Of a stretch of 47,319 nt of DNA, positions 11,080 through 46,970 are shown one piece after another. The notes under the pieces were generated by a model that was given only the letters and a program-made list of their open reading frames with translations, did no database searches and was not told the origin of the DNA. The position numbers and the translations under genes are program-made. The DNA is taken from sequence record NC_042046.1; one strand, written 5' to 3'. Source of the DNA: Escherichia phage C119. Within the stretch, counting starts at the first letter, position 1. Each line of letters begins with the position of its first letter.

Positions 11080-11151
11080 ATAGCACTAATTGCTAAACAG
11101 AAATACCAAGGAAGGTTTACAATTAAAAAACTTAAACAAGAGGTGATTGAT

Positions 11152-34467: not shown

Positions 34468-36057
34468 TTACCCCAGCAGCCGTGGATTGATATATACCTT
34501 GTCACCAATCAGGCAGGTATAGTTTTTATCATCAAGCATCGGGAGTAAGTGGTCTTTAATTTTAGCCATAACACCAGCCTGTGACTCGAAAGGTCGAACC
34601 TTACGCGCAGCTTCATAAAGTGAGCGCAAACCCACAACTCCTTTACTGTTCTTGCCTTGCTTGATAAGGATATCAATTAACTTGTTCATCTCAGCGTTAT
34701 CGCCAGCATGACCAGCTGCGTTAGCAGAAGATAAGTAAGTCTTGCTAAGTTCTTCAAACATCAATAAAGCCTCCTGCATCGTTTCCAGTCCAATCTCCCT
34801 GGACTTCTGCGGACTACCGCCATTTGGATTAAACCAGTTACGTATGGTGTGAAGAACGGCAGCAAGGCGAATAACCTGCTTATCCATTTTACCTAGTGCG
34901 CCACGGAGCATTGTGTGTGAATACTTGCCGCCATCCGCAAGGTGTGGCTCCATTTCCTGTCGAGCACGGTTAAGGTGCTTCATTGCTGAGTTACTAATAG
35001 TCAACTTCACATCTTGCTCACTCATAATTTCATGAACAAGACGGAAGTAATCAGCCTTCAACGCTCCGTCAATCGGCTCATATGTTGACTCGCCATTATC
35101 ATCGACGAAAACACGCTCACCAAGGAATGACTTTTCACGCACAAGCAAGAAACGTTCGGATACACCAATACCGCGAGCACCAGCATTCATGATTGCGACT
35201 ATTGTTTCATCCTGCGCAATTACAGAAATACACCCCATAGCAATAAAGCTCATGTTGTTCTCTGCGTTCGCACGCGCGATAGATACGTTACCAGCATCCC
35301 AGGCCTTAAGTACCAGTTCGCTGTTTGTTTTCTTTGTTCCATCACCATAGGTCATGCCAAGCAGTGAGTTGACGCTCGTCGCCTCATCCGAGATGACAGC
35401 GAAGCTACCCTGACGATGGTTAATGCGTGCCAGACCTTCAGGAGTAGTATCAGATACAGGGAATACGATGTCGCAAAGTTTCTCGAGCTTATCTTCCAGC
35501 TCCTCCTTCTCCTCAAACAAACCAGCCATCTCAGAAGGCGACTTCTCCTGCTTCATTTCTTTAGCCAGAGCCGACAGCTTGGCCATAATCTTTTTACGGT
35601 CACGCTTACGCAGATCGTTTAGTCGCTCAGTCTCTGCAATCATTGGAGCCAGAGACAGCGAGTTAATGGCGGATTTACCAGTTGATGGAGGCTGGCTGGT
35701 CACTACATACAGTGATGTTGGTTGTTGAGTTCCGTGATACTCAACCGTAAAGCGACCTAACATAGCTGCCGAGATGCAACCAAGGAAGTGCATATAAGCA
35801 GATGATTCAGGAAACTGAACAGAACGAGCAATGTTGCTTGATAGTTTGCCAACTACATCATAGTCGTTACCAAGCGAGATAACAGGATACTTGTCGCCAG
35901 TAGAATCAATCTCAACCGGAGCTTTCCAGAATGATGCGCTCTGGCGATAACCGTTCGCATTAATAGCAACACGTAAAGGAGGTAATCCATCCTGAGCGGC
36001 AACAGCCATTACTTGTTCAACAGTCAATTTGTCATCATTAAAATCAAACATTATCAT
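34468..36057 (-). CDS. Putative P-loop NTPase of unknown function (529 aa); full-length paralog of the ORF at 39457-40017
   Basis: Walker A-like VVTSQPPSTGKSA; N-terminus (MIMFDFNDDKLTVEQVMAVAAQDGLPPLRVAINANGYRQS) and C-terminus (VVGLRSLYEAARKVRPF...CLIGDKVYINP) are shared with the 186-aa ORF. Confidence 0.6.
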   Translation of the reverse strand: MIMFDFNDDKLTVEQVMAVAAQDGLPPLRVAINANGYRQSASFWKAPVEIDSTGDKYPVISLGNDYDVVGKLSSNIARSVQFPESSAYMHFLGCISAAMLGRFTVEYHGTQQPTSLYVVTSQPPSTGKSAINSLSLAPMIAETERLNDLRKRDRKKIMAKLSALAKEMKQEKSPSEMAGLFEEKEELEDKLEKLCDIVFPVSDTTPEGLARINHRQGSFAVISDEATSVNSLLGMTYGDGTKKTNSELVLKAWDAGNVSIARANAENNMSFIAMGCISVIAQDETIVAIMNAGARGIGVSERFLLVREKSFLGERVFVDDNGESTYEPIDGALKADYFRLVHEIMSEQDVKLTISNSAMKHLNRARQEMEPHLADGGKYSHTMLRGALGKMDKQVIRLAAVLHTIRNWFNPNGGSPQKSREIGLETMQEALLMFEELSKTYLSSANAAGHAGDNAEMNKLIDILIKQGKNSKGVVGLRSLYEAARKVRPFESQAGVMAKIKDHLLPMLDDKNYTCLIGDKVYINPRLLG

Positions 36058-36091
36058 CTCTCTCTAAATGCCCCCGAAGGGGCTTGATTAT

Positions 36092-36271
36092 TTACTTGAT
36101 ACGAACTTCAATCATCTGACCTTTATGAGGAAGATACAGCTTTGCGCGACCTCTAATCATTACGGTGATGATATTCTCCTTAAGGTCAACGTGAAGTACT
36201 TTGCGGAACAGTGGCCCCATTTTTACCATCATGCCAGGTTTGATGTTTTCGATAGTAGTCATGATATCCAT
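36092..36271 (-). CDS. Hypothetical protein (59 aa)
   Basis: Minus-strand ATG 36271 downstream of cassette copy (motif 36337-36355, leader 36290-36320); just below the ORF-track size cutoff. Confidence 0.5.
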   Translation of the reverse strand: MDIMTTIENIKPGMMVKMGPLFRKVLHVDLKENIITVMIRGRAKLYLPHKGQMIEVRIK

Positions 36272-36353
36272 TTTTTAGCCCTTTTAATGTATTTCGTTTC
36301 GATGAAGAGAATATATCAATTTTTGTTGTTAAGGTCTTTAGCAAAAAGTGCCA

Positions 36354-36470
36354 TTAAAGACCAACCAGACATTTGCCAACTACAACAGCGATTGCGCCCA
36401 TGAAGCCAAAGAAACCAAACTTAATTACTTGTTCCATTACCGCATCAACTGCTTTAGAGATGTTTTTCAT
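36354..36470 (-). CDS. Small membrane protein (38 aa)
   Basis: ATG 36470 with AAGGTG RBS; hydrophobic helix FGFFGFMGAIAVVVGKCLVGL; the longer ORF-track version would span a cassette motif. Confidence 0.45.
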   Translation of the reverse strand: MKNISKAVDAVMEQVIKFGFFGFMGAIAVVVGKCLVGL

Positions 36471-36555
36471 TTTGTTCACCTTAGTGTTTGTCTTCTTGAT
36501 GGAAACAAATATACCCGCCGAAGCGGGTAGTGTCATTAGCAAAAAGTGCTATTAA

Positions 36556-36750
36556 TTAAAACCTTTCGCCAGATGATAGCTTATTACTAGGCATTTTATC
36601 TATGAAAGTTTCAAGCAACCATTTTCTAGTAATGAAATCAACCACGCAAAAATAGCCTCTATCTTTGCAGTATCTGTACTTAGTGCCGTGTTGTATAGAC
36701 TTGCAATAAATTGAATCTTTTGTTATGTAAATTCTTACTGTCTCATTCAT
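36556..36750 (-). CDS. Hypothetical protein (64 aa, Cys-containing)
   Basis: ORF-track ORF in the minus-strand small-gene array. Confidence 0.5.
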   Translation of the reverse strand: MNETVRIYITKDSIYCKSIQHGTKYRYCKDRGYFCVVDFITRKWLLETFIDKMPSNKLSSGERF

Positions 36751-37100
36751 TTGTATTGGCTCTCGAATTTATAAGTTCCGCAAACAGTTGTAAATCCAAC
36801 ATCTTCAGAGCGAATCAGCGTCCATGAGTCACCATCTTCATCAAATATTTTACCAGCGTTCTGTCCAAGAGATGCGGTCATTTCTACCTGATAGCGACGA
36901 CCTTGCTTGAATGACTTTGATACTCCTGATTTATGGTTAACAAATGTGACATAAAGAGTCTTAGTCTTGATGTAACGCCCCCGCTCAGTGAGATTTTGCC
37001 ATTTACCATGAATCTTGATTTGCTCAATACCATCTTTAACGCGAGCTTTAAACAGATTGTTATCTGAGCTGATCCAGTTTTTAGTGATAGTGGTAGCCAT
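36747..37100 (-). CDS. Hypothetical protein (117 aa)
   Basis: ORF-track ORF, coupled to the downstream gene. Confidence 0.55.
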   Translation of the reverse strand: MATTITKNWISSDNNLFKARVKDGIEQIKIHGKWQNLTERGRYIKTKTLYVTFVNHKSGVSKSFKQGRRYQVEMTASLGQNAGKIFDEDGDSWTLIRSEDVGFTTVCGTYKFESQYK

Positions 37101-37125
37101 TACTATTTTCCTTTTTGGTTTGTTA

Positions 37126-37428
37126 TTAGTTAGCGTTATGACGTTCGATATAGTCGCGGATTGTTTCGCCTACGCTTTTAGCGGCACCAAAAGTGCCCTT
37201 TGCGTGGCGTGAATCGCGGTACGTCTGGAAGAATTTACGAGCGATGTTTGCGAACATTGAACCAGTCACGCGAGCATCACCGAAATTTGTTTCGATAGCG
37301 TTGCTAATGCCATCCTTGAACTCATTTTCAGTCATGAACATCTCTGCCATGCCAGCAGTCTCGAAAAGGTTAGCTAATTCATTCATGTTGTTATGGTCTT
37401 CGGCTGTAAACAGGTTCATGTTAATCAT
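37126..37428 (-). CDS. Hypothetical protein (100 aa)
   Basis: Preceded on the minus strand by cassette leader attcatctcatcgaaacgaaactaa. Confidence 0.55.
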   Translation of the reverse strand: MINMNLFTAEDHNNMNELANLFETAGMAEMFMTENEFKDGISNAIETNFGDARVTGSMFANIARKFFQTYRDSRHAKGTFGAAKSVGETIRDYIERHNAN

Positions 37429-37502
37429 CTTCGTGATTCTTTAGTTTCGTTTCGATGAGATGAATATACAATAAAAGCCCCGAAGGGCTTTAGCAATTCG
37501 TG

Positions 37503-37655
37503 CTATTTCTTTGCTGCTTTTGCAATTGCCTTCTGGACGATGTTGAAGCTCTCAATCAAATCTTCTTTGAAGTAGTCACCAACAGGCCAACCCTTACCGC
37601 TGTACTTGGCTATGGTTTCTAGATCGTAATAGTTCAAGTCAGATGGCTTTAGCAT
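37503..37655 (-). CDS. Hypothetical protein (50 aa)
   Basis: ATG 37655 adjacent to the upstream stop (TAA-ATG); stop TAG is the TAG of a minus-strand cassette motif (37489-37507). Confidence 0.4.
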   Translation of the reverse strand: MLKPSDLNYYDLETIAKYSGKGWPVGDYFKEDLIESFNIVQKAIAKAAKK

Positions 37656-37895
37656 TTACTTAACCTCATCAAAAGTTGCAATACCAGGAATAAACACTCC
37701 AACCTTCCAGCCTGTAATGGCAATCCATCCAGAATCGTGCTTGTGTGGTCGCTCAGCGCCATTAATAACCCATTCGTTCGGGATTGCCTTGCCGTTAATG
37801 ATTAGACGCTCAGCGTCGTATAAAGAGCCTTTTACGAATGGTGTTAGTATTTTCTTGTCGGTACTTGTAATGCAATTGGTGCAGCGAATTTTCAT
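37656..37895 (-). CDS. Hypothetical protein (79 aa)
   Basis: ORF-track ORF with GAGG RBS. Confidence 0.55.
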   Translation of the reverse strand: MKIRCTNCITSTDKKILTPFVKGSLYDAERLIINGKAIPNEWVINGAERPHKHDSGWIAITGWKVGVFIPGIATFDEVK

Positions 37896-37905
37896 ATCTC
37901 AATCC

Positions 37906-38085
37906 TCAAATAAATGGTAAACATTCGACGCAGCCAAGTCCATCGCAGCACAGAAATTCATCTTCTGACTGGAATTGCTTAGCCAAATCAATGTCCAGCT
38001 TTCCGCGCAGCACAAGGTTGGTGTAAACTTCGTTAAGTCCAATCAGTGCGCATTCGTGGCGCAACTCGTCTTTATCAATCTTCAT
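37906..38085 (-). CDS. Hypothetical Cys-rich small protein (59 aa)
   Basis: Minus ATG 38085; C-terminal CCDGLGCVECLPFI; overlaps neighbours. Confidence 0.4.
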   Translation of the reverse strand: MKIDKDELRHECALIGLNEVYTNLVLRGKLDIDLAKQFQSEDEFLCCDGLGCVECLPFI

Positions 38086-38269
38086 AACGCTCTACCTCGA
38101 AGTTGTATACCATTACGTTTCTATCATGCTTGTTCTTTATCACCATTGACTCAAGCTCTTCGTATACAGCCACTACATTGTAAACACCACCAGGCTCAAG
38201 GCCGTAGAATTCGTACTCTTCATCGTCAAAACCATCCGTTTTACTTAGTGCTGTTATTTTTACCTTCAT
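38075..38269 (-). CDS. Hypothetical acidic protein (64 aa)
   Basis: First gene after minus-strand cassette copy (motif 38325-38345, leader 38270-38292). Confidence 0.55.
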   Translation of the reverse strand: MKVKITALSKTDGFDDEEYEFYGLEPGGVYNVVAVYEELESMVIKNKHDRNVMVYNFEVERYED

Positions 38270-38616
38270 ATCTATCTCCTCGTTGTTGATGAGTTTACTA
38301 TAGCCTTGCCATCCCCATTTGTCTTTAGCAAAAAGTGCTATTCGTCAGATTTATGGATTGTTGCAGGCATTGCGATGATTAGCATGACTATTACACATAA
38401 AGCAATATTTCATCGATTGCAATGATTTTCTGGACTGTTGCGAATTTATCAATGATTGATGGATTGATGGAATGAAGTGAGGGTTGTATCAACTAGTTGG
38501 TTGGTTTTAGCTTTCACAAGGAGCTTTCCTTTATGTACGCGTTATGGCTTGTTCAACCGTGTAGAGAAATTGCCATATTTACGCCATCCACGCCAGTTTA
38601 CGCGCTGGTTACAAAA

Positions 38617-38686
38617 TAAATCCCTTATATAACAACCATTTAGATTTATTATTATTATTATTATTATATATGTTATTCCGTAACCA
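38617..38686. repeat. AT-rich element copy B with (TTA)7 microsatellite
   Basis: aaatcccttatataacaaccatttagatttattattattattattatatatgttattccgtaacc; direct repeat of the element at 18357-18424. Confidence 0.8.
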
Positions 38687-38941
38687 TGATTATCTGAGAT
38701 ATTGGTGATATTTTTTGATATTGCGCGGCGCATAAAGATTTAGATAAAGAGATAGGGATGCAAGCGGGGTGGCGAAAATGGCTTAACATACCATAACGGC
38801 AATAACAGCCTTGATACGACTAGCGTCAGCATGTAACAATTTAGCATAACGTGCGATTACCGAGTTGAACGTGTAAATAACGCTTGCGACATTCACCAAT
38901 CATGGTAAGATGCTCTCACACCAAACGAGAGGAGTAGTAAA

Positions 38942-39457
38942 ATGAGTAATACAATTCGTGAAGCAAACCCGACACTTGGCGACCTGGTGCGGCACCTTGT
39001 TAAGATGGCTCTTAATTCAGAGGATGGAAGCGTAACAGTTCCCGTTAAGTTGCTTTACAAGAATCTTTACGGAGAAATTGATAACGACTATGTAGCAGCT
39101 GACTTTAGACCTGGCGGCAAATATTCACTTCCAAAGCTTAAGGCTTCCTATGTTTCAAATACAGCCAGCAGAATGCAGGAAGTTAAAGACGCAGATAAGC
39201 GCGCAAGGTTCTCTTGTGGAGAGATGGAGTATAATGGTGATGAGCATTATTGCGTAAAAATCACAATGGTCAACGGTGCTGTTAAGAATGGAACCCGAGC
39301 TAAGACAAACAGTCAATTAGAGGAGAAAGCGGTAAGCGAGTTTAAAGCTAGGCTACTTAAGCTTTCCCCCAGCGTAGCAGGAATGAGTGGAGATGAACTG
39401 AAGGGTGCGGTAGCTATGATTAACGCATATCAGGAAATGATTAAGGAGACTAAATAA
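38942..39457 (+). CDS. Hypothetical protein (171 aa)
   Basis: ATG 38942 with GAGGAG RBS; first gene of the rightward operon after the 650-bp noncoding region. Confidence 0.6.
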   Translation: MSNTIREANPTLGDLVRHLVKMALNSEDGSVTVPVKLLYKNLYGEIDNDYVAADFRPGGKYSLPKLKASYVSNTASRMQEVKDADKRARFSCGEMEYNGDEHYCVKITMVNGAVKNGTRAKTNSQLEEKAVSEFKARLLKLSPSVAGMSGDELKGAVAMINAYQEMIKETK

Positions 39458-40017
39458 TGTTTGATTTCAACGAGGATAAGTTAACTGATGACCAGGTGAT
39501 GGAAGTCGCCAGGCAAGATAACCTGCCGCCACTTCGTGTGGCAATCAGTACTAATGGATACCGCCAATCATTCAATTTCTGGCCCAGCGCCGAAGAGATG
39601 CTGTGCGTCAAGTTGAGCTACAAATACGGTGTCGTAGTTAGCAGGATTAGCCGCCATGGCTGGAATGGAGTGGTTGGCATTCGATCTCTATACGAGGCAA
39701 TACGAAATGTCCAGCCATTCGTCGGGCGCGAAGGGATTATGCATGACCTGACAAATAACATCATCCCAGAACTACAAGAGGCGGGAATTGTTTGCCTCAT
39801 TGGCGATAAGATTTATGTTCATCCGGCCCTGGTTGAGATGGATAAGGACGACGTGCAAAACTGGTGCAGTCAGTGCCGATCCGACGTGCCACGCTCAAAC
39901 TACGTGCCACCGCAAACAACAATCCATGGCTATAATGCCGATGAGGTGGAGAAGGCCATACAGTTCTACCGGAAAGCGAAAGCTCTCCCGAATGGTGAAT
40001 ATAGCACAAATTGCTAA
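39457..40017 (+). CDS. Truncated paralog (186 aa) of the 529-aa NTPase-like protein, lacking the central P-loop core
   Basis: N-terminus MFDFNEDKLTDDQVMEVARQDNLPPLRVAISTNGYRQS and C-terminal block VVGIRSLYEAIRNVQPF...CLIGDKIYVHP align to the ends of the 34468-36057 product; AAGGAG RBS; stop inside a cassette motif. Confidence 0.65.
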   Translation: MFDFNEDKLTDDQVMEVARQDNLPPLRVAISTNGYRQSFNFWPSAEEMLCVKLSYKYGVVVSRISRHGWNGVVGIRSLYEAIRNVQPFVGREGIMHDLTNNIIPELQEAGIVCLIGDKIYVHPALVEMDKDDVQNWCSQCRSDVPRSNYVPPQTTIHGYNADEVEKAIQFYRKAKALPNGEYSTNC

Positions 40018-40074
40018 ACAATAAATTGGGTAGTCAGCTATGATTACCCTATCAACAACAAAGAGGAAATAACC

Positions 40075-40869: not shown

Positions 40870-41120
40870 TGAGCAAGTACAACCGACAGATTGTTGGGCT
40901 GAATGGTAAAGTAACAACCATTGATGTATATCGGGTTCTGGATGCATTCCAGGTAACTGACCCCGCAACTCAACACGCCATTAAGAAAATGCTTTGTAGT
41001 GGGTTGCGTGGGCACAAGGACTATTTAACAGACCTTGATGAAGCTATTGAGTCGCTTAATAAGGCTTATGAACTTCGAAAGCAGCGTGATGAGCTTGGAT
41101 ATGTTTATTTCAGTAAATAG
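40869..41120 (+). CDS. Hypothetical protein (83 aa)
   Basis: ORF-track ORF; stop TAG is the TAG of the cassette motif at 41115-41134. Confidence 0.55.
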   Translation: MSKYNRQIVGLNGKVTTIDVYRVLDAFQVTDPATQHAIKKMLCSGLRGHKDYLTDLDEAIESLNKAYELRKQRDELGYVYFSK

Positions 41121-41192
41121 CACAAATTGCTAAACATCCATCGCAAGGATGCGTTACCATTACTTTATCGAAATTAGACGAGGAAAGATTAA

Positions 41193-44971: not shown

Positions 44972-46246
44972 ATGGTAAAAGCAGACAGCTACGCAAACAT
45001 CTTTCTCAACGGGAGTGATGGTAGCGAGATTTACGGAAAGCTTGGCGGCCTTGGCCTAACAGCTCCAGCGCAGCTTGAGCAGCTTTACGTCAACAGCGCA
45101 CTGGTTCGCCGAATCATTGATATCGTGCCGGAGGTTGTACTTGGTGCTGGCTTTAACATCGAAGGCATCAGCGATGAAGGTGCTTTCTGGTCTCGATGGG
45201 ATGATTTAGACCTTTCAGATAGCGTAATTGACGCCCTGGCGTGGGCAAGGTTATACGGTGGCGCAGCTGTAGTAGCAATAGTTAAGGATGGTAGGGCGCT
45301 AACTAGCCCAGCTCGTGAAGGTGCGGAGCTCGAAACCGTTCGCGTATACGACCGGCAGCAAGTAAAAGTGCAGACTCGCGAGGAGAATCCACGAAACGCT
45401 CGATTTGGTAAGCCATTAACTTACCGCATCACGCCAAATGGTTCAGCTACGTTCTATGATGTACACTACACACGTTGCCATATCATTGATGGCGAGCGAG
45501 TGCCTAACAATTTACGTCGTAATAACGATGGTTGGGGCGCAAGCGTGCTAACTAGTGACTTAATCGACGCGATTGACGACTATCAGAACTGCGAGAGACT
45601 GGCTACTCAGTTACTGCGTCGTAAGCAGCAGGCTGTATGGAAAGCTAAAGGCCTTGCTGACTTGTGCGATGATTCGGATGGATTTGGCGCGGCTCGTTTA
45701 CGTCTGGCTCAGGTAGATAATAACAGTGGCGTTGGTCAGGCTATCGGGATTGACGCGGAGAGTGAAGAGTACAACGTTCTCAACTCAGATATTGGCGGTA
45801 TTGATACATTTCTGAGTCAGAAGTTCGATCGAATCGTTGCCCTGAGCGGCATCCATGAAATTATTCTCAAAGCCAAGAATACTGGCGGTGTATCAGCCAG
45901 CCAAAATACGGCTCTGGAAACTTTCTATGGTTACGTTGACCGCAAGCGCAAGGCTGAATTACTGCCCCTTCTTGAGTTCCTGATTTCATTCATTGTAAGT
46001 GAGCAGGAATGGTCAGTAGAATTTAACCCTCTATCGCAGATTAGCGACAAGGATAAATCTGAGATTCTTGAGAAGAACGTCAATTCAGTTGCCGCATTGA
46101 TTGCAGCTGGAATCATTGACGCAGACGAAGCAAGAGATACGTTGCGCGCAATTTCAACTGAGGTTAAGATTGGCGAAGGCTCAATTCAAACGGAGGTTGT
46201 AATTAATGAATCAGAAGACCCGCTGGATGTATCCGCAAATAATTGA
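44972..46246 (+). CDS. Portal protein
   Basis: 424 aa, directly downstream of terL, acidic C-terminus. Confidence 0.8.
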   Translation: MVKADSYANIFLNGSDGSEIYGKLGGLGLTAPAQLEQLYVNSALVRRIIDIVPEVVLGAGFNIEGISDEGAFWSRWDDLDLSDSVIDALAWARLYGGAAVVAIVKDGRALTSPAREGAELETVRVYDRQQVKVQTREENPRNARFGKPLTYRITPNGSATFYDVHYTRCHIIDGERVPNNLRRNNDGWGASVLTSDLIDAIDDYQNCERLATQLLRRKQQAVWKAKGLADLCDDSDGFGAARLRLAQVDNNSGVGQAIGIDAESEEYNVLNSDIGGIDTFLSQKFDRIVALSGIHEIILKAKNTGGVSASQNTALETFYGYVDRKRKAELLPLLEFLISFIVSEQEWSVEFNPLSQISDKDKSEILEKNVNSVAALIAAGIIDADEARDTLRAISTEVKIGEGSIQTEVVINESEDPLDVSANN

Positions 46247-46970
46247 GAGCCAGATTAATCGCAGCCTTTTGGTTGCGGTATCTGAACTTATTGAGCAAAT
46301 GAAGTTATCTGCAAAGAGGCTAAAAATTGACACAGCGCAGGAGATTGAAGAGGAAGATTCAGACCTTTCAGATGTAATCTCAGCGCTGCTATCTGGTTTT
46401 GTTTCCACTCTGCCTGCGCTGGCACTAGCAATATATCGTTATAACTCGGCGCAATTCCTTAAGGTGGCCAACAACTCCGGAGGTAAGGATAATCCTGTAG
46501 TTCTTGCGCTAGGATTGTATGGTATTAACGCGGATGAACCATGGTGGCTCGACACCAGGAACTCATGGATTGTTGGCACGCAGTTAAGTGCATCAAAGCT
46601 GCTAAACAACATCAAGGATGATTTCATAAACAACGCCATTACTGCGCAGGCTGGTAACACTGTTGACCTTGATGATAGATACCGAATCTACAGAAAGAGA
46701 ACAGCAAATATCGCTGCTGGAATTACAGGGTCTCTAAACTCAAACCTTATGCGGAGAAGGCTTGAAGATGCCGGTGTATCTCAGTATGTTTGGCGTGGTA
46801 GACTTGACGACAAAGAGCGACCATCTCACGTTTTGCGTGAGGGGGTTAGCTTTAAATCAGATGGTTCGGACGCTGGAAAACTTGACGGCCTTGCGATATT
46901 CCCCGGTCAGCAATACGGGTGTCGTTGCTGGGCTGTTCCTAAATGGGAGAATTTAATTAATGAAGAGTAA
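46206..46970 (+). CDS. Head morphogenesis protein (Mu F / SPP1 gp7-like)
   Basis: Position after portal; C-terminal ...GQQYGCRCWAVP resembles the conserved C-terminus of MuF-like minor head proteins. Confidence 0.65.
   Translation: MNQKTRWMYPQIIESQINRSLLVAVSELIEQMKLSAKRLKIDTAQEIEEEDSDLSDVISALLSGFVSTLPALALAIYRYNSAQFLKVANNSGGKDNPVVLALGLYGINADEPWWLDTRNSWIVGTQLSASKLLNNIKDDFINNAITAQAGNTVDLDDRYRIYRKRTANIAAGITGSLNSNLMRRRLEDAGVSQYVWRGRLDDKERPSHVLREGVSFKSDGSDAGKLDGLAIFPGQQYGCRCWAVPKWENLINEE

Follow-up and report, generated by a model that had tools for sequence, protein, structure and literature searches.

A paralog of the DUF3987 helicase with both helicase ends and no motor in Escherichia phage C119

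Escherichia phage C119 (sequence record NC_042046.1; the whole stretch of 47,319 nucleotides analyzed is referred to as the window) encodes a replicative helicase of the DUF3987 family and, on the opposite strand, a protein of 186 amino acids (aa), hereafter mini, which as judged by sequence comparison is a paralog of the helicase and not a helicase. Alignment describes mini as the helicase minus approximately residues 45–437 plus a new tail of about 60 aa, generated by one old in-frame internal deletion. According to sequence and structural model, what remains of the helicase is the N-domain of three helices, the final helix of the lid and the winged helix at the C terminus; the whole ATPase core is gone. 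The relation between the two proteins, a separate gene with both helicase ends and no motor, is what is new; the helicase family and the hypothetical mini family were already known. The latter, PHROG 7327, is catalogued without an assigned function, appears as hypothetical proteins in many Drexlerviridae records, and its relation to the helicase is unrecorded. In literature searches on DUF7174, helicase escape mutants of Drexlerviridae, truncated paralogs of helicases and the Rogunavirus helicase, we found no description of the mini–helicase relation or of a function for mini.

Shared domains of the helicase and mini

The features compared are the following, with the basis of each assignment in brackets.

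34468..36057, minus strand: replicative helicase gene, DUF3987 / superfamily 6 (SF6), MCM-like (Pfam PF13148 and phrog_2373 matches, AlphaFold2 (AF2) model, Foldseek)
35908..36051, minus strand: predicted helicase N-terminal three-helix domain, residues 3–50, common to mini (BLASTP; helices 13–23, 27–35 and 38–43 in the model)
34753..35811, minus strand: DUF3987 ATPase core, residues 83–435, missing from mini (Pfam; Walker A at 35671–35691)
34474..34662, minus strand: predicted helicase C-terminal winged-helix region, residues 466–528, common to mini (BLASTP, model topology, published family statement)
39457..40017, plus strand: mini gene, 186 aa, PHROG 7327 (phrog_7327 profile, homologs, AF2 model, nonsynonymous to synonymous substitution ratio (dN/dS))
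39457..39600, plus strand: mini N-domain, residues 1–48 (BLASTP, motif, model)
39619..39834, plus strand: mini helix 55–67 and predicted winged helix, residues 55–126 (DSSP, Foldseek)
39835..40014, plus strand: mini-specific C-terminal tail, residues 127–186, a disordered linker and a conserved helix ...Y-x3-EVEKAI-x-FYRKAK (conservation, model)
39443..39459, plus strand: ribosome-binding site (RBS) AAGGAG (39443–39448), 8-nt spacer and ATG overlapping the upstream TAA as TAATG (read from the sequence)

Mini matches the helicase at its two ends and, by BLASTP, nowhere between them. Helicase residues 3–50 align with mini residues 1–48 (33 of 48 identical, 69%, E 5e-20), and helicase residues 466–528 with mini residues 66–126 (29 of 63 identical, 46%, E 1e-17). 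The Smith–Waterman scores of the N- and C-terminal segments are 173 and 157, compared with 20.5 ± 4.2 and 22.6 ± 3.9 for 1000 shuffles of the mini segment (z 36 and 34, respectively), and the PHROG profiles of the two proteins cross-match at the same two ends. The motif LPPLRVAI-x-x-NGYR-x5-FW is common to the mini N-domain and the helicase; this motif (LPPLRVAI..NGYR..FW) and KGVVGIRSLYEA / CLIGDKIY mark the shared domains, and both families conserve them. At the nucleotide level, the shared segments have an identity of 0.54–0.61 in this genome, and the window holds no third copy of them. The genes lie on opposite strands, 3.4 kb apart, and mini does not stem from an internal start within the helicase gene.

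These results bear out most of the first-pass annotation, which had read the 186-aa product as a terminal-domains-only copy aligning to both ends of the 529-aa product. The similarity holds against shuffled controls; the central region with PPSTGKS is absent from mini, along with the whole Pfam DUF3987 match (83–435); and the C-terminal extension of about 60 aa is novel, in that tail residues 127–186 match nothing else in the window. Both open reading frames (ORFs) are intact where they had been placed, that of mini with a good RBS. The full-length ORF at 34468–36057 likely starts slightly later than proposed, at ATG 36051, giving 527 aa. The description of mini as inverted is right for the strand, but not in the sense of a usable inverted repeat in the DNA, which is absent at the nucleotide identity given above.

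What had been called a P-loop protein can be named more precisely. As judged by profiles and model, the 529-aa ORF encodes a replicative helicase of the MCM-like DUF3987 / SF6 kind, in a phage of Rogunavirus type (Drexlerviridae); it is an unremarkable representative of an already known family. It matches Pfam PF13148 over residues 83–435 (E 2.5e-42, 145.8 bits, cut-off 27) and the ‘DNA helicase’ profile phrog_2373 (E 2.9e-255). Walker A (PPSTGKS) occupies residues 123–129 and Walker B (VISDEAT) residues 221–227; among 40 homologs, down to 35% identity, Q122, P123, P124, S125, G127 and K128 are invariant, as are S223, E225 and A226. The AF2 model has a predicted local distance difference test (pLDDT) score of 89.8 and a predicted template modeling (pTM) score of 0.87, and is laid out as an N-domain of three helices (13–43), a linker, the core (68–448), the last lid helix (453–470) and a winged helix (474–523). 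Among the best 50 Foldseek matches listed against the PDB, nearly all are eukaryotic Mcm2–7 or archaeal MCM chains (probability 1.0, best E 5e-6, with TM-scores of only 0.3–0.37). The C-terminal topology of the model, H453–470, E474–476, H477–484, H496–510, E514–517 and E520–523, is that of a winged helix (helix-strand-helix-helix-strand-strand), and DUF3987 proteins have been described as MCM-related replicative helicases of SF6 that occur in phages and mobile elements and have a winged helix-turn-helix at the C terminus (Kazlauskas et al. 2016, PMC4889955). Helicase activity (5'-3') and binding to its primase have been demonstrated for one of them, AgaPH, which is distant from the helicase analyzed here (PMC11724360). 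Sequence searches of the PDB with either the helicase or mini found nothing, and the winged-helix profile had no hit there either.

Two in-frame ATGs (MIMFDF, 36051–36057) could open the helicase gene. The second, at 36051 (MFDF..., 527 aa), is most likely the start because the resulting length matches that of most homologs and a GAGAGAG stretch lies at the right distance; with it, helicase and mini both open with MFDFN(D/E)DKLT. About 15 nt upstream of the helicase gene, a GC-rich hairpin, GCCCCCGAAGGGGC (36070–36083), has a terminator score on the plus strand only, where no gene ends. An HNH endonuclease gene directly adjoins the helicase gene on its upstream side in T1 (L035 among the loci compared; 46085–46624) and lies one gene away upstream in a metagenomic relative (L029, 7307–7804); the window has none upstream of the helicase. 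Across these genomes HNH genes turn up at differing sites, a pattern typical of mobile endonucleases.

Mini is a full-length member of its family, residues 1–181 matching profile positions 1–179 of 179 in phrog_7327 (E 1.3e-98). It has no Pfam hit, the DUF3987 ATPase domain being absent. The AF2 model of mini (pLDDT 82, pTM 0.67) is confident over residues 4–140 and comprises three helices (11–41), helix 55–67, a strand-helix-helix-strand-strand winged helix (72–121), a disordered linker and a last helix (161–176); DSSP assigns H55–67, E72–74, H75–82, H94–108, E112–115 and E118–121. In the tail, pLDDT falls below 50 at residues 142–153 ahead of helix 161–176; residues W136, Y159, E163, V164 and A167 are invariant, and F170, Y171, R172 and K173 nearly so. 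The minis of phages Sf12 and phiEB49 carry an alternative tail. Foldseek pairs the mini model with the winged helices of Cdc6, forkhead and MarR proteins at a probability of 0.9–0.99 but E ≥ 0.07, and apart from winged-helix proteins the fold searches, including BFVD, turned up only orthologs of mini and helicases of Drexlerviridae.

In the shared N-domain, the first helix, LTVEQVMAVAAQDG (in relatives LTPQQVIAIAESQG; window 35986–36030, approximately helicase residues 10–24 and mini residues 8–22), is similar to helix 1 of the TAL-effector repeats, LTPEQVVAIASNGG. Homology to TAL effectors was considered and set aside: the hidden Markov model search with the N-domain profile gave TALE structures large summed scores (LTPEQVVAIAS against LTVEQVMAVAA), no single stretch was significant, and the likeness probably reflects a common helix-cap pattern.

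Origin, distribution and loss of mini

The Sf12 copy shows the deletion at its clearest: here mini residues 1–43 align with helicase residues 2–44, and mini residues 39–129 with helicase residues 438–528 at 61% identity. In a neighbor-joining tree of the concatenated shared segments, a short and simple tree of 129 columns, all minis form one clade (89 of 100 bootstraps) nested among the Rogunavirus-type helicases, with long branches for minis and branches near zero for helicases. The tree is suggestive of a single origin of minis inside the Rogunavirus-type helicase lineage. Multiple independent origins were considered since the Sf12 and phiEB49 copies are 72–74% identical to the helicase winged helix, and were ruled out by the bootstrap support for the mini clade, in which these two copies form the slowest-evolving branch.

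Other routes to the present arrangement were examined and rejected. Neither inversion of a segment nor gene conversion acting on the common ends fits: a search with 8-nt seeds found no inverted repeat, nucleotide identity is 0.49–0.73, and the synonymous divergence (dS) between the paralogs is saturated in 14 genomes. A segmental duplication of two genes does not fit either, as the DUF7174 gene product encoded upstream of mini resembles neither the helicase nor the products of the helicase-flanking genes. A source of the tail elsewhere in the genome was excluded, no match being found in the window.

The 6.5-kb stretch around the two genes is 99–100% identical to Escherichia phages phiKP26 and phiJLA23 and 96–98% identical to AHP24, AHS24 and Jk06; of these, AHS24 and phiKP26 have been assigned to Rogunavirus within the Drexlerviridae, T1-like siphophages. 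The window mini is 100% identical to that of phiJLA23. Homologs of mini number 311 proteins at E ≤ 1e-3, the best 120 listed being mostly 175–190 aa and down to 47% identical, and more than 100 distinct full-length clusters, down to the same identity, show invariant residues in all three parts including the tail. An exhaustive profile search of 1.84 billion representative proteins gave 50 matches, all of them minis, fragments or helicases of ~520 aa; no new architecture appeared among the 50, and BFVD agrees. Related phages, which the first-pass annotation had proposed to check for one or both genes, comprise 506 records with a helicase-like match, of which ~100 also carry a full-length mini, including the BASEL phages AugustePiccard, JeanPiccard and JulesPiccard. 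T1 has the helicase (55% identical) and no mini.

Among the loci compared, protein identity to the window copy is 39–95% for mini and 72–99.8% for the helicase (at least 87% in mini-carrying genomes). Whole-gene dN/dS values (Nei–Gojobori) are 0.15–0.49 for mini and 0.01–0.05 for the helicase, and mini stays at 0.15–0.3 across pairs with dS 0.4–2; by these measures, mini is under purifying selection and evolves 5–10 times faster than the helicase. Between mini and the helicase of the same genome, dS is saturated or above 0.85 in 14 of 14 genomes, yet the N-domains are 61–77% identical in 13 of them (36% in locus L028). Mini is therefore a duplicate of long standing in which selection maintains the helicase-like surfaces, and not a recent remnant. 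Within the mini gene, the window and phage e4/1c (L004) differ by a dS of 0.08 in the N-domain and 1.05 in the winged helix, where the e4/1c segment is of the L028 type GMLYVSQLYRQIREVQPF; this contrast indicates recombination within the gene between phage lineages.

Several copies are damaged. Single in-frame stops interrupt mini in DTL (L008, 8671–9192), CEB_EC3a (L012, 893–1411) and the 12397-type locus (L013, 10001–10528); those of DTL and L013 fall just before the conserved tail helix (...YEG*HASRLPYHLRY...), and the sequence past the stops is still well conserved. These could be recent inactivations, sequencing errors or two-ORF arrangements. In Rogue1, gp04 (L034, NC_019718.1, 1103–1189; its annotation notes a similarity to rtp2 of Rtp) is a 28-aa ORF, MFDFSEDKLTDEQIEKLKRKKKYLLTGK, in which the first 14 residues of mini are fused at a DEQI repeat (microhomology) to the end of an Sf12-type tail. 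The alignment identifies this stub as a second internal deletion that keeps the overlapping start, and the resulting size series, 527 aa to ~180 aa to 28 aa, documents stepwise internal deletion at the sequence level. In the phiKP26 record (L027, NC_042038.1) mini appears twice, as a full copy at the right end (46389–46961) and as an N-terminally truncated copy at the left end (30–473), 88% identical and with ambiguous bases; the second looks like terminal redundancy or a low-quality assembly overlap and not a second gene.

The stops, the stub with only the start and end of the gene in Rogue1 and Rtp, the lack of mini in most relatives and a constraint relaxed relative to the helicase would all suit a functionless remnant, that is, a slowly decaying leftover of the helicase duplication whose ORF is kept through translational coupling to its neighbors. 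We consider this very unlikely. Decay of this kind is at odds with a dN/dS of 0.15–0.3 over pairs as divergent as those above, with the number of full-length clusters and their invariant residues even in the new tail, with a confident and compact model, and with N-domains that stay close to those of the helicase despite saturated synonymous sites; the window copy is, moreover, intact with a strong RBS. Of the first-pass suggestion of a recombination remnant, the origin by internal in-frame deletion thus survives, as the Sf12 copy illustrates, whereas a dead gene is contradicted by the large family, the confident fold and the dN/dS of 0.15–0.49.

Genomic setting and possible roles of mini

Two further features bear on the role of mini.

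38942..39457, plus strand: DUF7174 gene, 171 aa, phrog_4841, opening the rightward block (Pfam PF23796, E 1.5e-49; synteny)
38270..38941, no strand: noncoding region between divergent blocks, ~670 bp (promoter-like motif, TTGCAAT / GCAATATTGC repeat block, three ACGC repeats, (ATT)n tract)

At every locus examined, mini comes second in the rightward block, where it immediately follows the DUF7174 gene and overlaps it, and the helicase lies 3.4–5 kb away on the opposite strand. The TAATG overlap, which recurs in loci L028–L033 and in Rogue1, marks mini as translationally coupled to the DUF7174 gene. The latter also occurs without mini, in Rogue1, and its product has no similarity to the helicase or its neighbors.

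The opposite-strand gene blocks diverge from a noncoding stretch, as the first-pass annotation had it, here delimited to 38270–38941. Within it, GCAATATTGC is a perfect palindrome, the three ACGC repeats are spaced 10 nt apart, and the AT-rich (ATT)n tract has ~7 units; these blocks are conserved in 7 divergent Drexlerviridae genomes. Both the T1 record and the 2.8-kb terminal repeat of T1 begin in the equivalent place, which makes 38270–38941 a candidate pac and/or origin region, and the terminal redundancy probably takes in mini. The window contains 15 occurrences of an 18-nt motif, TTTAGCA-N4-GTGCTAT, against 0.59 expected, at 38324–38341, 36337–36354, 36535–36552, 37489–37506, 40001–40018 and 41117–41134, with nine more sites at 11080, 18241, 20675, 26667, 29063, 29748, 30434, 32279 and 38840. 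Read in the direction of transcription, it is ATAGCAC-N4-TGCTAAA, with a palindromic core TAGCA-N5-TGCTA and a -35-like TTGCTA. Its orientation tracks local gene direction between 36 and 41 kb, where neighbors were mapped, and it abuts promoters annotated in AHS24; one copy sits at the mini stop codon, and in Rogue1 the motif directly follows the 28-aa stub. The motif probably serves as a promoter or operator specific to the phage.

Primase is neither fused to the helicase nor immediately upstream of it; in phiKP26 the primase gp49 is ~8 kb from the helicase gp68, and likewise in T1, and the T1-type primase is annotated as P4-alpha-like. The genome annotation lists no separate initiator or helicase loader, so the DUF3987 helicase may load itself.

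With its sequence, mini would be incapable of ATP binding or hydrolysis and of forming a motor ring. Since the ATPase core is gone but the motifs of both peripheral domains are preserved, it most likely works as a mimic of those domains. A role as regulator, adaptor or dominant-negative partner of the full-length enzyme, as the first-pass annotation suggested, would be plausible. By analogy with other systems we tentatively propose, at a little short of an even chance, that mini, as a mimic without catalysis, binds the partners of the helicase peripheral domains in their stead and tunes helicase loading or initiation. In such a scheme, mini would dock on what these domains bind, namely (i) the helicase’s own N-domain or winged helix, (ii) alternatively the separately encoded P4-alpha-type primase, or (iii) the DNA of the adjacent noncoding region, and the docked protein would tune loading or initiation early in infection.

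Several observations weigh against this proposal. Mini is missing from ~80% of related phages that have a near-identical helicase, among them T1, Rtp and Rogue1, from which it follows that replication does not need mini; as judged by its distribution, mini is accessory, dispensable and repeatedly lost, and therefore cannot be an essential partner of the helicase. We see no co-variation between mini and the helicase of the same genome: the helicase ends are almost invariant, the N-domain included, while those of mini drift (as far as the 36% of the L028 N-domain), although the invariance of the helicase ends makes this comparison uninformative in itself. The assignment of the winged helix in mini rests on model topology and weak Foldseek E values, and sequence profiles match no winged-helix family (winged-helix profile; Pfam on the C-terminal segments). 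The winged helix of the window mini has an isoelectric point (pI) of 5.4, compared with 9.3 in the helicase, and has lost most basic residues, which argues against a DNA-binding role shared with the helicase. The early timing assumed here, finally, is a prediction from gene position only.

The charge of mini also counts against a second possibility, that the winged helix and N-domain have been co-opted, independently of the helicase, as a stand-alone transcription factor or origin/pac binder. The modeled winged-helix fold, the position of the gene beside a conserved noncoding stretch that holds palindromic as well as phased repeats, and the abundance of the partly palindromic promoter-like motif, one copy of which lies at the mini stop codon, fit such a regulator. 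The window mini is, however, acidic in both shared domains (pI 4.2 in the N-domain), its putative recognition helix EGIMHDLTNNIIPELQEAG is without a basic residue, phages that lack mini keep the same motifs and noncoding blocks (as after the Rogue1 stub), and a separate ‘transcriptional regulator’ gene is annotated beside the primase. We therefore regard a helicase-independent regulator as quite unlikely.

A third explanation is that mini is a decoy or competition factor, whose helicase-like surfaces soak up a host defense sensor of the helicase peripheral domains or poison the helicase of a related co-infecting phage. Patchy presence, repeated loss and in-frame stops are the typical profile of an accessory or counter-defense gene, and the elevated dN/dS of mini (5–10 times that of the helicase), the mosaic recombination seen against e4/1c and the position among small genes without assigned function at the genome end agree with it. 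Phage helicases are also known triggers of some defense systems: UvsW of T4 and D10 of T5 trigger Retron-Eco11, although these are of a different helicase class from DUF3987. On the other hand, mini matches no PADLOC model, NCBIfam gives nothing and no known anti-defense annotation attaches to it; our literature searches found no defense system that senses DUF3987 helicases; and dN/dS is below 1 in most segments, so that positive selection is not demonstrated, the sole value above 1 (1.88, tail, window against AHS24) resting on very few substitutions. A poison would, furthermore, strike the phage’s own helicase, the ends of which scarcely differ from one to another of these phages. On balance, a decoy appears unlikely.

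A bolder version of the idea may be entertained, albeit as an improbable one: a ‘headless helicase’ that uses its two retained peripheral domains to dock on the helicase ring, the primase or a host sensor, and so either controls helicase loading at the origin-like region nearby or keeps the helicase hidden from immune recognition. Were this true, the headless helicase would represent a new class of helicase-derived regulator or decoy present in about one-fifth of Drexlerviridae, including BASEL phages Bas01–03. Replication initiation in T1-like phages is poorly understood, and mini offers a natural probe for the partners of the helicase peripheral domains; it is present in the genetically tractable phages Bas01–03, phiJLA23 and AHS24 and naturally absent from the close relatives Rogue1 and Rtp, which provide matched controls. 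Should mini regulate or mimic the helicase, gene duplication followed by motor deletion would be a simple route to a modulator of a phage’s own replisome; should it have no phenotype, it would still be a clear, datable case of stepwise phage gene decay.

Comparison with known systems

The longer protein resembles DUF3987/SF6 helicases in its Pfam match, Walker A and B motifs, predicted MCM-like fold, C-terminal winged helix and small N-terminal accessory domain. It differs in that its primase is neither adjacent nor fused, an arrangement that in this family is frequent but not obligatory (PMC4889955), and in that its N-domain is a lineage-specific three-helix unit of ~45 aa and not PriCT. Mini is not a member of this family, the whole DUF3987 domain being missing; its membership lies in PHROG 7327, of which it is a full-length example.

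Mini also recalls the shortened isoforms of replication enzymes, as a shorter protein that shares domains of the full-length enzyme, is encoded in the same genome and has lost part of the activity. T7 gp4B, phiX174 A*, adeno-associated virus Rep52/40, papillomavirus E8^E2 and Tn5 Inh are shortened replication or transposition proteins that modulate the full-length enzyme. Such shortened proteins arise from the same gene as the full-length enzyme, by internal starts or splicing, and keep one contiguous end, whereas mini is a separate, divergently oriented gene that keeps both ends without the middle, has diverged strongly (46–69% identity) and has gained a new tail.

The closest working model for mini, by analogy, may be Cnr of phage P4. 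Cnr, a small winged-helix protein, reportedly acts by heterodimerization on gpα, the P4 primase-helicase, whose origin-binding winged-helix domain it regulates, a finding said to go back to work by Yeo et al. in 2002. Mini is likewise a small phage-encoded protein with a predicted winged helix beside a replicative helicase with a C-terminal winged helix, and the primase of the T1 family is annotated as P4-alpha-like. The systems differ in that the P4 helicase belongs to superfamily 3 and the helicase described here to SF6, and in that mini is an unmistakable helicase paralog that also carries the helicase N-domain; sequence homology between mini and Cnr is unlikely because, of the 1.84 billion proteins searched with the profile, only minis and Drexlerviridae-type helicases matched. 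What Cnr offers is a mechanism, in which mini could regulate initiation through heterodimerization of one winged helix with another.

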